Sequence record: PV435126.1
Direction: 5' to 3' (one strand)
Length of the DNA stretch: 64,000 nucleotides
Source of the DNA: Escherichia phage EPFV3-03/2025
In this document: positions 44,949-49,085 of the stretch, piece by piece
Numbering within the stretch: position 1 is the stretch's first letter
Layout of the letters: every line of letters starts with the position of its first letter
Program-made: the position numbers and the translations under genes
The notes under the pieces: generated by a model
Databases searched by the model: none
The model's input: only the letters and a program-made list of their open reading frames with translations
Told to the model about the DNA's origin: nothing

Positions 44949-45008
44949 TAAGATGTGAGCATAAAGGGGAGGAACTCCTCCCCACAAAACTGAGGAGAGC
45001 ACCAAACG

Positions 45009-45311
45009 ATGAAGCGTTACAAACCATACACTTTTGAAATCGATTTCGAACTTGACGATATGCTCACTGTAGAAGCTCAGGCAGTTGTCCAGTTGCCAGA
45101 TCCGGAGTGCCGTGATTCTGATGTTGATTATTATGGATTTAGACAGATTACCGATTTACATGTTTACCACAACGGAGAGGAGGTGGACTTTCACCAACTC
45201 CCGAACGATCTGCGACACTCTATTTACAAACGTGCAGCCCGTGAACTAGAATCATATCTGGATGCAGCGACAACAGCAGCAGCATTTGCTGAAGAAGTAG
45301 GGGGATTCTAA
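45009..45311 (+). CDS. hypothetical protein
   Basis: 100-aa ORF. Confidence 0.45.
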   Translation: MKRYKPYTFEIDFELDDMLTVEAQAVVQLPDPECRDSDVDYYGFRQITDLHVYHNGEEVDFHQLPNDLRHSIYKRAARELESYLDAATTAAAFAEEVGGF

Positions 45312-45706
45312 TGATTACGGATGTGAAGATTATCCAATACCACTTAACCAAATTGGAAGATGCTGAAAAAGAGCTTGCAGAAGTTCTGAATAGCGGGTAT
45401 ACTTTATTGACATGCTCCTGTTCAGACACATACATTGTGTGGACACTTGCTAAGAAGGGAGAACCAGCAGGAATCTTGGTGCCAAACCCTAAGATTATTA
45501 GTGAGGTGGACGACTACTCTCAGGATGGCCTGCCAGAGTGTTGGGAAGCATGGGAAGGTGGTGAAAACCCTGCACCAGGTAAGTGGGTAAAATACAAGCT
45601 ACGTAGCGGTGCACAGTATGCTGACTACTCTGATGACCTAGACTGGAGTCACGCTTCACCAGGATCGTCTGCAAGTGCATATGATATCGTTGCTTTTCAG
45701 GAATAA
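45311..45706 (+). CDS. hypothetical protein
   Basis: 131-aa ORF. Confidence 0.45.
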   Translation: MITDVKIIQYHLTKLEDAEKELAEVLNSGYTLLTCSCSDTYIVWTLAKKGEPAGILVPNPKIISEVDDYSQDGLPECWEAWEGGENPAPGKWVKYKLRSGAQYADYSDDLDWSHASPGSSASAYDIVAFQE

Positions 45707-45718
45707 TGGGAGAGTGTT

Positions 45719-46201
45719 ATGTCAGATTTCATGTGGAAGGTAGGCTATGCCTCTCCTGAAATGTGCGAGGCCTGCTTTGTGAAAATAGGCCGCGAGGATA
45801 TCGACAAAGTGATCCTTAAGTTTCGTGATGTGTCTGTGATCGGCAACCGAGTGCTTAAGCACTTAAAGAATCTGAAGCTCACCAAGAAGAAGTTCTTCGG
45901 ACTTTTCGAAGAGAAAGTCGATGCTTGGACCCATTGCATTCAGGAAGCTAAATCTCACTATAGTGCTATCGTTACCCCAGAACGGGTAGCCAAGATGGAA
46001 GGATTTATCAACAGCACAGAGTTTGAGTGCCTAAAGGCTGCCCTTGATAGCTATCCAAAGTGCCTCAAACACCTTGACAAGTATGTAGAAAAGGATGGGG
46101 AAATGTATCTCACCCTGGACGCATACTATGAGATGCAAGAAATTTTAAATTTAGATTTGACATTGGTATCCACCGAGTATACAATAGGTATCCGGGTTTA
46201 A
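45719..46201 (+). CDS. hypothetical protein
   Basis: 160-aa ORF. Confidence 0.5.
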   Translation: MSDFMWKVGYASPEMCEACFVKIGREDIDKVILKFRDVSVIGNRVLKHLKNLKLTKKKFFGLFEEKVDAWTHCIQEAKSHYSAIVTPERVAKMEGFINSTEFECLKAALDSYPKCLKHLDKYVEKDGEMYLTLDAYYEMQEILNLDLTLVSTEYTIGIRV

Positions 46202-46209
46202 CACTAGGT

Positions 46210-46235
46210 CCTGCCCGAAAGGGTGGGGCTTTTTG
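46210..46235 (+). terminator. rho-independent terminator (CCTGCCC-GAAA-GGGTGGG + T-run)
   Basis: GNRA-loop hairpin with two G-U pairs followed by TTTTT; same sequence recurs at 57612. Confidence 0.6.
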
Positions 46236-46252
46236 CATTAGGAGACAGCAAA

Positions 46253-47017
46253 TTGAAATTTATCTACAAAGAACACCACCACAAAGGTGTTGTGTGGAGT
46301 CTATTTGATGGGTCTGGTGGTGCAGTCATTGACTGGGCAAAAGCTGGGTATCTGTGCCTGTGCTTTAATGCAGAAGGTGCTGACCATGGTAGCTATGCAG
46401 AGGTGATAACCGATCATCCCAACATTCACTACGTGGATTATTGGATTGACCCGTGGTTCCCTCAAGAAACTTTTTGCATGTACCCAGCTCCAGACTTTAT
46501 TCTTGCATTTCCTCCGTGCACGCATTTAGCAGTATCAGGTGCTGCACATTTTAAGAAAAAGCTGGCTAAGGACCCCCTGATCCAAATTAATGCTGTAAAA
46601 GATGCTCGGGTTGCGGAAGAGCTGGGAGAGATCTACGATTGCCCGTGGCATGTAGAGAATCCTGTGGGTGTTATGTCCACACTGTGGCGCAAACCTGATT
46701 ACCGTTTTCACCCTTCGGATTATGGCGGGTATTTACCGGAAGATGATGTAAACCCATGGTTTCCTGAATTTATAGCTCCACGTGATGCCTATCCAAAAAT
46801 AACTTGCGGATGGATAGGTAACGGATTTATAATCCCGGCCACAAAACCTGTCCCGCAGATAGTGGATGCGGTTAGTGGTTATTCTATGCAACACGCTAAG
46901 CTAGGTGGAAAGAGTGCAAGGACGAAGATGATTCGAAGCCTTACACCACGTGGCTGGGCTAAAGCTGTATTCTTAGCAAACGAGCCTGCAGTAAGGAGCA
47001 GAATTAATGGGCAGTAA
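46253..47017 (+). CDS. compact DNA (cytosine-5) methyltransferase-like protein
   Basis: Track ORF 46223-47017 (GTG inside the terminator); more likely TTG near 46253 after GGAGA. Motif I-like LFDGSGG, motif IV-like FPPCTH (PC), motif VI-like ENPVG. Confidence 0.5.
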   Translation: MKFIYKEHHHKGVVWSLFDGSGGAVIDWAKAGYLCLCFNAEGADHGSYAEVITDHPNIHYVDYWIDPWFPQETFCMYPAPDFILAFPPCTHLAVSGAAHFKKKLAKDPLIQINAVKDARVAEELGEIYDCPWHVENPVGVMSTLWRKPDYRFHPSDYGGYLPEDDVNPWFPEFIAPRDAYPKITCGWIGNGFIIPATKPVPQIVDAVSGYSMQHAKLGGKSARTKMIRSLTPRGWAKAVFLANEPAVRSRINGQ

Positions 47018-49085
47018 ATTCATGGCATCTGCATACAACCGTTTCGGTGAGCCAAACCCGAAAGCAACCAAATATAAAAGTGGGGGGAGTGTGAAACGAG
47101 ACTATCGTGATGAAAAAGAGGTCGAAACTGTAGAGACTGTTTTAGAAAATACTAAAATTGTCCCTGTTCCACAACAAAATATCGGACTGATGGCTGCACA
47201 ATACTTCGGTGTGCGATCAGCATTGTCTCAAGAAGATGGGGTAACGGTCACTGCAACATATTTCCCATATTACGACCGCTACGGTAATCTATCTGGCTTT
47301 AAAAAGCGCGACTGGACAATCCCTAAAGAGCAAAGGGGCCATTTCTCAGTTGTTGGCATAGTAAAGGCCAACTCTCAGATGTTTGGTCAAAAGCTGTGTG
47401 CATCCTCCAACAACCGTAAACAGATTAACGTTTGCGAGGGGGAGGGTGATGTTATTGCAGCATGGCAAGCTGCATATCAGATACAAGTGAAAGGTATTCT
47501 CACCAATGCTAAAGCCCCAGCGAAGGTGAAGCAGTGGGCTAAAGAAGTTCAAGATGGGATTGATGCAGTTATCGACGGCGGGGATCTGGCAGGAAAACCC
47601 TGCCTGCCTTTTGTTGGAATTAACTGCGGGTGTGCAAACGCCGTAGATACTTTTGCTAACAATGAGAAATTTATCCGTAGCTACGGAACAGTGGTCCTTG
47701 CAATGGACAACGATGCAGCTAACGAGGTAGAGAAGCAAAAACACGTTATCAAAGGTGTTGAGGCCACACATAATATCGCAGCATTTTTGATGGCTGATAA
47801 CGTTTACCACGTGGAATACCCTGGTGAAGTAAACGATCCTGATGGTGTAAAAGACATTCGTGACATGCTGAAGGCTAAAAAGCTGGAAGATATTGTCAAC
47901 ATGTTCCGTCACCCAGTCAAATATGTGCCTGATGCTGTATCTGATTTAGAAGACTTCTCCATTGAGTCTCTTCGTAAGAAGACTTCCAATGGCGTAGATA
48001 TCAGTGCGGAGTTCCCTAAATTGCAGAAGATGCTGAAAGGGCTCCACAAAGGCACCTTGATGATGCTGACAGGCCCATCTGGCGGTGGTAAAACAACTGT
48101 AGCCAAGAAGCTGGAACACTGTATTGCAAGATACTTGATGGATCCAACATGCCCTAAAGCTGATGACTATGAAGAGGATGATCGCCTGTGCCTGATTCAC
48201 CTTGAAGAGGATCCTGAGGAAGCAATCAACTCTCTATACGCCAACCAGCTGGGATTTGATGTTAAAGAGTTTGTTGAAGACCCCAGTCAGTTCCTTACCG
48301 ACCAGGAGCACGCTGAGATCCATCAATCTTGGGCCAAGGCCGGAAAAATTAAAGTGTTCAAGCATTTCGGCTCCATCCCTGTGGATGAGCTGATCACTAA
48401 GCTTAAACAAATGGTGTGTCTGTATCACTGCCGTTACATTGTGCTGGATCACCTGTCCATGGTGATTTCAGGGCTTAATGTTAAGGATGAGCGCAAAGAA
48501 CTTGACATGGCTATGACTCAACTAGCTGCGTTCTGTAAGCAGTTTAATGTGTTTATCTTGGTTATTGCTCACCTGAAGCGCACAGAGATTATACCTCCTA
48601 AGGATAAGGATGGGAATCCGTTGCCTTTCTGGTATCCTGTACGAAAAGAGAACCTTCGTGGTAGTGCCGGATTGGAGCAACTCAGCTGGGTAGTTGTTGG
48701 GGTAGAGGCAGAAGAGATGGTGGATCGTTCTCGTGGGCGTGTCCGACTAGTAGGTCTTAAAAACCGCCCAGCAAAAACGTTAGGTATTGCGGACACTTTG
48801 GTTATGGATCCTCACACAGGCAAGTTCCACGATGCCAGCAATTGGTATTGGGATAAAGAAATGCAGATGTTTACAGACGGAGAAGGTGGGGAGGTTGTTT
48901 GGAGACCTCAGGCTATGTTTGAGGATCAGGATCATGCAGTTGTGGAAACACCCATGGGTAAGGTTGTGGCTGATAAGGTTGTAACTCCTACTGTTACCCC
49001 AGTTGACACGCAGGAAGATCCTCAGTATGATGATCCGTCCTCTAACCACGTCCCCGGTTTTGAAGACGACGAAACACCTTTTTAA
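47007..49085 (+). CDS. DNA primase/helicase (T7 gp4-like: TOPRIM + DnaB-type helicase)
   Basis: 692 aa; TOPRIM-like CEGEGDVIAAW and VVLAMDNDAAN; helicase Walker A LTGPSGGGKTT and Walker B IVLDHLS. Confidence 0.65.
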   Translation: MGSKFMASAYNRFGEPNPKATKYKSGGSVKRDYRDEKEVETVETVLENTKIVPVPQQNIGLMAAQYFGVRSALSQEDGVTVTATYFPYYDRYGNLSGFKKRDWTIPKEQRGHFSVVGIVKANSQMFGQKLCASSNNRKQINVCEGEGDVIAAWQAAYQIQVKGILTNAKAPAKVKQWAKEVQDGIDAVIDGGDLAGKPCLPFVGINCGCANAVDTFANNEKFIRSYGTVVLAMDNDAANEVEKQKHVIKGVEATHNIAAFLMADNVYHVEYPGEVNDPDGVKDIRDMLKAKKLEDIVNMFRHPVKYVPDAVSDLEDFSIESLRKKTSNGVDISAEFPKLQKMLKGLHKGTLMMLTGPSGGGKTTVAKKLEHCIARYLMDPTCPKADDYEEDDRLCLIHLEEDPEEAINSLYANQLGFDVKEFVEDPSQFLTDQEHAEIHQSWAKAGKIKVFKHFGSIPVDELITKLKQMVCLYHCRYIVLDHLSMVISGLNVKDERKELDMAMTQLAAFCKQFNVFILVIAHLKRTEIIPPKDKDGNPLPFWYPVRKENLRGSAGLEQLSWVVVGVEAEEMVDRSRGRVRLVGLKNRPAKTLGIADTLVMDPHTGKFHDASNWYWDKEMQMFTDGEGGEVVWRPQAMFEDQDHAVVETPMGKVVADKVVTPTVTPVDTQEDPQYDDPSSNHVPGFEDDETPF

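Follow-up and report, generated by a model that had tools for sequence, protein, structure and literature searches.

What kind of enzyme is encoded by a compact gene that lies among the replication genes of Escherichia phage EPFV3-03/2025, and does it methylate DNA? The gene occupies positions 46,253–47,017 on the plus strand of the window, i.e., the stretch of 64,000 nucleotides of sequence record PV435126.1 that was analysed, and it runs from a TTG start to a TAA stop as a protein of 254 residues. The window comes from a myovirus of the rV5-like group, genus Vequintavirus; its bases 45,000–48,000 match 117 phage records at 90–96% identity, with vB_EcoM_SYGMH1, HMD-6, YP-6, and FV3 as the best nucleotide matches. 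In a first-pass annotation the gene was read as an orphan cytosine-5 (C5) DNA methyltransferase, since the motifs FDGSGG, PC, and ENP were noticed in a protein of about 255 residues. All three are found, in canonical order, when the 254-residue sequence is read directly, and the analysis leads to the same enzyme: with a probability of roughly 85% the gene encodes an active, stand-alone, S-adenosylmethionine (SAM)-dependent DNA cytosine-5 methyltransferase of a compact, “Dcm-like” phage family. The evidence for the product, 5-methylcytosine (5mC), comes from a relative in phage K42.

The gene itself is real and under strong purifying selection, because nearly all codon differences from close relatives are synonymous and the homologues are very many. 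The coding sequence (CDS) differs from that of FV3 by 39 synonymous and no non-synonymous changes, and from that of HMD-6 by 38 synonymous and three non-synonymous ones, which gives a ratio of non-synonymous to synonymous rates (dN/dS) of 0.02 in the latter case and a range of 0–0.02 overall. The gene is listed as an open reading frame (ORF), and a CDS of the same 765 nt is annotated in FV3, HMD-6, and LL12. It is not unusual and already known: relatives already carry the annotation DNA (cytosine) methyltransferase.

The link to an enzymatic activity is provided by a study on retron Ec86. Phage K42 is a strain of KarlJaspers, 95.4% identical to Bas06, and its mutants that escape Ec86 all disrupt a 711-bp dcm gene (10.1101/2023.08.16.553469). 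Expression of K42 dcm increased 5mC in the multicopy single-stranded DNA (msDNA) of the retron, as measured by LC-MS (liquid chromatography coupled to mass spectrometry), and triggered the defence, while a C82A/E128A/K175A/K176A mutant caused neither the rise in 5mC nor the defence (10.1101/2023.08.16.553469). The corresponding KarlJaspers gene, bas06_0055, is likewise 711 bp long and encodes 236 residues; its product, which like the window protein falls into PHROG 757, is 54% identical to the window protein over the full length (E 2e-86), with equivalent motifs, and its residues C82, E128, and K175 fall on C89, E135, and K182. The copy of phage JohannLBurckhardt gives the same alignment picture (E 5e-86), the two proteins being 53–54% identical to that of the window. 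It follows from the 54% identity and the aligned catalytic residues that the window protein belongs to a family in which one member is reported as an active DNA C5-methyltransferase. The proteins of KarlJaspers/K42 and of the window are of similar size and further share a conserved short recognition segment and only one C-terminal motif; both are orphans encoded beside replication genes. They differ in the N-terminal extension of 10 residues and the TTG start of the window protein, as well as in the genomes that host them, a 135–140 kb myovirus in the case of the window protein and a T1-like siphovirus of ~50 kb in the case of KarlJaspers.

The motifs of the window protein can be placed on those of a canonical enzyme. 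When the profile of the compact family was aligned by hhalign with the single sequence of Escherichia coli Dcm, motifs I, IV, and VI fell on their counterparts and the C-terminus was not reached. Motif I, the cofactor-binding loop of FxGxG type, is FDGSGG (residues 18–23; 46,304–46,321, plus strand), which is conserved in the homologues and falls on FAGIGG of Dcm. Motif IV, PPCTHLAVSG (46,511–46,540, plus strand), is set on FPCQPFSLAG of Dcm and holds the catalytic Cys89, the residue aligned with C82 of KarlJaspers; PPC comprises residues 87–89, the codon of Cys89 being nucleotides 46,517–46,519. P87, P88, C89, S95, and G96 are invariant among 20 homologues, and C89 is at least 90% conserved among 76. 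Motif VI, ENP in place of canonical ENV (residues 135–137; 46,655–46,663, plus strand), is set on ENV of Dcm, and among the 76 homologues Glu135 and Asn136 are at least 90% conserved and Pro137 is invariant. With these alignments, and with the 54%-identical homologue corresponding to an enzyme reported to make 5mC, the proposal of an orphan C5 methyltransferase is supported.

The small size of the protein had been taken as a hint of a minimal target-recognition domain, and a minimal domain does stand in place of the usual one: a segment of about 50 conserved residues (150–199; 46,700–46,849, plus strand), which includes the invariant Lys182. Across 76 diverse members it is, unusually, conserved like the catalytic motifs (mean top-residue frequency 0.60 vs. 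0.55–0.67). Further towards the C-terminus there is a single motif, RSLTPRGWAKAV (46,934–46,969, plus strand), which opens the last long helix (residues 233–253 in the AlphaFold2 model described below) and can be called motif IX- or X-like; close homologues show no variation at R228, S229, L230, P232, R233, and A238. By its sequence RSLTPRGWAKAV resembles motif IX, and by its position in the last helix it would fill the role of motif X. Compared with RRLTPRECA, motif IX of Dcm, it is alike at 6 positions out of 9, a non-significant likeness that comes from an unfiltered hmmsearch pairing with a negative score, and a scan of C-terminal fragments against Pfam for motif IX vs. motif X returned nothing.

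At the level of whole families, the window protein matches PHROG 757, “DNA methyltransferase,” over residues 2–251 (6.8e-87). Its homologues fall into 3551 clusters when grouped at 90% identity, and at 50% identity there are 1018 representatives, nearly all homologues being 210–260 residues long; tblastn detects the compact family in 1503 phage records (576 of Escherichia, 521 of Klebsiella, 107 of Salmonella, and others), including Drexlerviridae and Dhillonvirus phages of the BASEL collection, in which the gene is annotated as “Dcm-like C5 cytosine methyltransferase.” The AlphaFold2 model, built on 76 homologues, has a mean predicted local distance difference test (pLDDT) score of 94 and a predicted template modelling (pTM) score of 0.92, and Foldseek relates it to DNMT3A/3B in the PDB (E 3e-7) and to phage cytosine methylases among viral models. 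DNMT3A was also the template on which the authors of the retron preprint modelled K42 Dcm (10.1101/2023.08.16.553469). The window protein has the class I methyltransferase fold and stands closest to the C5 methyltransferases; the suggestion in the first-pass annotation that it might be a different SAM-dependent enzyme is not supported. The likeness to the catalytic domains of DNMT3A and DNMT3B amounts to only 12–14% sequence identity, and DNMT3 enzymes are CpG methyltransferases that act as oligomers, together with partners and regulatory domains. With canonical PF00145 enzymes (E. coli Dcm, M.HhaI, M.HaeIII) the window protein shares motifs I, IV, and VI, which occur in equal order and align, and presumably also the Cys-dependent mechanism. 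It differs from them in length (254 vs. 327–472 residues), in having about 50 conserved residues instead of a large variable target-recognition domain, in ENP for ENV and PPCT for PCQ, in its one C-terminal motif, and in scoring below the Pfam threshold.

The mechanism proposed here is drawn from the conserved residues and from the canonical chemistry of C5 methyltransferases. The protein would be translated from TTG 46,253 after an AGGAGA ribosome-binding site (RBS), probably in co-expression with the overlapping gene of the replicative primase/helicase. F18–G23 together with D66 would hold SAM, Cys89 would attack C6 of a flipped-out cytosine, Glu135 would protonate N3, and the methyl group would then be delivered to C5, with Lys182 and the conserved segment 150–199 predicted to contact the substrate. 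In this way the replicating phage DNA would become methylated.

Which sequence would be methylated? As segment 150–199 is conserved across the whole family, a single target is probably common to its members. So far CCWGG alone has been proposed, for the Drexlerviridae homologue, and for K42 Dcm it was assumed by analogy with the host Dcm, not mapped (10.1101/2023.08.16.553469). A change of CCTGG in the msDNA stem abolished the Ec86 defence; the host MG1655 is dcm+, yet its control msDNA is low in 5mC (10.1101/2023.08.16.553469). The phage enzyme may differ from the host Dcm in site, in substrate form, or in dosage. A doubtful, though still appreciable, possibility is that segment 150–199 specifies something other than the inner cytosine of duplex CCWGG, the candidates being the outer cytosine, a shorter site, and hairpin or single-stranded replication intermediates; such a target would account for the triggering of Ec86 by the K42 enzyme, but not by the host's own Dcm, in a dcm+ host. 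In the window, CCWGG occurs 100 times vs. 149 expected, a mild depletion that is not decisive for the target. The expectation was calculated with a maximal-order Markov model over the whole window, and by this measure the mildly under-represented sites include, with observed/expected ratios, CCWGG (0.67), CGCG (0.69), CCGG (0.76), and GGCC (0.79), but not GATC (0.91) or GCWGC (1.0).

The mark might bring both a benefit and a cost. On the one hand, the methylated phage DNA would be protected from 5mC-sensitive enzymes that cut the methylated site, e.g., those of EcoRII type, and an anti-restriction benefit, as expected in the first-pass annotation, is plausible only for nucleases blocked by 5mC at the target site. 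On the other hand, rV5-like phages carrying the gene would possibly be exposed to retron Ec86, which would sense the activity of this enzyme. In Drexlerviridae, which often carry the compact family, no simple link was seen between methyltransferase genes and resistance to restriction (BASEL study).

The N-terminus of the protein depends on the choice among non-ATG codons, for which two upstream starts had been offered, a GTG inside a terminator hairpin and a TTG after an RBS. Both lie where they were described; TTG 46,253 is supported and is the start to annotate, whereas the GTG is rejected. The Shine-Dalgarno sequence AGGAGA (46,240–46,245, plus strand) stands 7 nt 5′ of the TTG and is the same in FV3 and HMD-6, the 60 nt 5′ of the TTG being nearly identical to both; in LL12 a curated ribosome_binding_site feature is placed at the equivalent site, and the 765-nt CDS is annotated from the equivalent TTG in all three phages. 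In an 80%-identical metagenomic relative (L003, L004) the protein begins as MDFIYK at a GTG, 6 nt after AGGAGG, and an in-frame TAA lies directly 5′ of this codon; it follows that a non-ATG start at the equivalent codon is conserved and, in that relative, cannot be moved upstream. It is improbable that translation begins instead at GTG 46,223, from which the ORF at 46,223–47,017 (plus strand) is listed with 264 residues, or at the internal GTG 46,292, even if both codons are in frame and some homologues begin only 4–6 residues ahead of the first strand. GTG 46,223 sits in the 3′ arm of an 11-bp hairpin (46,206–46,231) and has no Shine-Dalgarno sequence, so that this position, together with the TAA of the relative, speaks against it; a start at GTG 46,292 would delete part of strand 13–17, the first β strand of the AlphaFold2 model. 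The hairpin and the T-run that follows it (46,206–46,236, plus strand) form a terminator-like element behind the upstream gene (terminator scan, 11 pairs with a loop of 4; RNA fold −20.1 kcal/mol, z −2.6). A strong sigma-70-like promoter match, TTGACA-17-TACAAT (11/12), is present at 46,157–46,185 within the 3′ end of the upstream gene and closely precedes both the hairpin and the RBS of the methyltransferase, which is an odd order of promoter and terminator; promoter-like sites around this position are no more frequent than in shuffled sequence.

Several observations weigh against an active DNA C5 methyltransferase. The window protein has no match in Pfam or NCBIfam, and PF00145 does not appear even at E up to 10. 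Whether the query was the protein alone or a profile of 76 sequences, searches of PDB sequences returned nothing significant, only chance matches to short-chain dehydrogenases and a sperm-tail protein. The hhalign probability against Dcm is low (1.5%), which is explained by the target being a single sequence. Asn39 stands in place of the canonical Glu of motif II, a lone C-terminal motif takes the place of the canonical pair IX and X, no motif VIII (QxRxR) was recognised, and K176, the fourth residue mutated in K42, aligns with Ile183 of the window protein, one more difference from KarlJaspers/K42 Dcm. Finally, the Vequintavirinae are exceptionally susceptible to restriction-modification systems (BASEL study); any protective effect must therefore be narrow.

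Could the protein then be a catalytically dead relic, kept as a DNA-binding or regulatory protein? The score below the Pfam threshold, the change of Glu to Asn in motif II, the missing motif IX or X, and the lack of evident restriction protection in Vequintavirinae would fit such a role, yet a very large family keeps the catalytic Cys, the Glu of ENP, and the cofactor loop with little or no variation, dN/dS is ~0.02, and activity is reported for a homologue built in the same way, which makes a dead enzyme very unlikely. As regards Pfam, the missing score reflects how far the model reaches, not a different fold. The profile search suggested in the first-pass annotation succeeded with PHROG 757, but the window protein stayed below the PF00145 cut-off; among 76 diverse family members only 2 reach E < 0.01 with PF00145, and the 55–57% identical homologues P0054, P0070, and P0072 pass its gathering cut-off (22 bits) with their N-terminal halves, over motifs I–IV. 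The compact family is a divergent branch that the model barely covers. Because this phage family, though widespread, escapes the models of Pfam and NCBIfam, its members are often left as “hypothetical protein.”

An active enzyme could also transfer another group. CmoX takes carboxy-SAM, a product of the host CmoA, as the donor of a carboxymethyl group and so gives 5-carboxymethylcytosine, and its choice of cofactor is set by an Arg that replaces Asn304 of HhaI in motif X; Arg228 and Arg233 are conserved in the one C-terminal motif of the compact family, and E. coli makes carboxy-SAM. However, the equivalence of Arg228 or Arg233 to HhaI Asn304 could not be established, the family has FPPC and not the SPPC that defines CmoX candidates, no cmoA or amide-ligase gene adjoins it in the window or in the prophage contexts, and the homologue corresponding to the 54%-identical protein gave 5mC by LC-MS. 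CmoX itself (PDB 8yf3) differs in its length (333 residues in the crystal chain), SPPC, the carboxy-SAM-binding Arg, and a usual location beside cmoA and the ligase. A CmoX-like carboxymethyltransferase was therefore rejected, on the grounds of FPPC, the absent linkage to cmoA and ligase, and the product of the tested relative, and we regard it as most improbable. Methylation of RNA, in the manner of the Dnmt2-like tRNA m5C enzymes, or of free nucleotides might be thought of in view of the tiny recognition domain and of a substrate examined in the compact family only on retron msDNA, but it is just as remote, as the gene is located in DNA replication modules and the K42 homologue methylated DNA; the ranking of hits, the gene context, and the conservation of the catalytic residues make both this possibility and that of a dead enzyme unlikely.

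For a methyltransferase of the DNA C5 type, the gene neighbourhood points to a solitary enzyme. On the 5′ side lie a PIF1/Dda-like helicase gene and genes of four small proteins of unknown function, and on the 3′ side a primase/helicase gene (47,007–49,085, plus strand; from the ORF list, PHROG 239 match 8e-159 and a Pfam DnaB_C match). None of these products matches a nuclease family, so the absence of an adjacent restriction enzyme, stated in the first-pass annotation, holds, and a restriction-modification pair was rejected for want of a nuclease among the neighbours. The ATG of the primase/helicase gene (47,007) overlaps the end of the methyltransferase gene by 11 nt (47,007–47,017), with AAGGAG inside the coding end of the latter. 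The 11-nt overlap is kept in the 80%-identical relative L003 (3746–3756), which suggests translational coupling; the two genes are probably co-transcribed and coupled. In lambdoid E. coli prophages (L005, 6494–8747; L006, 6476–8783) a homologue is found in the nin region within a fixed block, in the order Dam (PF05869), DUF6378, a 165–167-residue protein of unknown function, and the compact Dcm-like gene, after which come NinG and RusA.

As a discovery the gene carries little weight, given that in sequenced rV5-like phages it is already annotated as a DNA (cytosine) methyltransferase and one member of the family has been studied experimentally. A mapped target of the family would help to foresee which retrons (such as Ec86), restriction enzymes, and nucleases dependent on methylation the rV5-like therapeutic phages evade or trigger. 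If the target did differ from the inner cytosine of duplex CCWGG, over 1500 enterobacterial phages with known sequences, among them all those of rV5-like type, would bear a DNA mark that is still unmapped and would share a weakness towards sensing by the retron.

Some further observations concern the records matched and the surroundings of the gene. Among the records matching bases 45,000–48,000, 16 (MG0656xx) are titled “Campylobacter phage,” and 39 such records appear in the protein search; the host given is Campylobacter jejuni among the matches listed, four listed rows are ~93% identical, and the host labels look doubtful. In two uncultured Caudovirales proteins of BFVD, A0A6J5SE15 and A0A6J5NPY6 (1126 and 1397 residues), a segment matches the model of the compact methyltransferase at 24–27% identity, and the 1397-residue protein is named “Helicase/UvrB, N-terminal.” Upstream of the gene, at 44,949–45,008, the window has a short intergenic spot where FV3 carries a gene for a putative adenine methyltransferase of 447 residues (L001, 2598–3941), bracketed by two similar hairpin-plus-RBS cassettes; it has no counterpart in HMD-6 or in the window, where tblastn gave no match, and the site resembles an insertion/deletion polymorphism of a gene cassette in this genus. 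Directly downstream of that spot and three genes upstream of the Dcm-like gene, a 100-residue protein of unknown function (45,009–45,311, plus strand) has no Pfam match and weakly matches PHROG 1573, “DNA methyltransferase” (E 4.9e-5), over positions 54–133 of the 138 in the profile.
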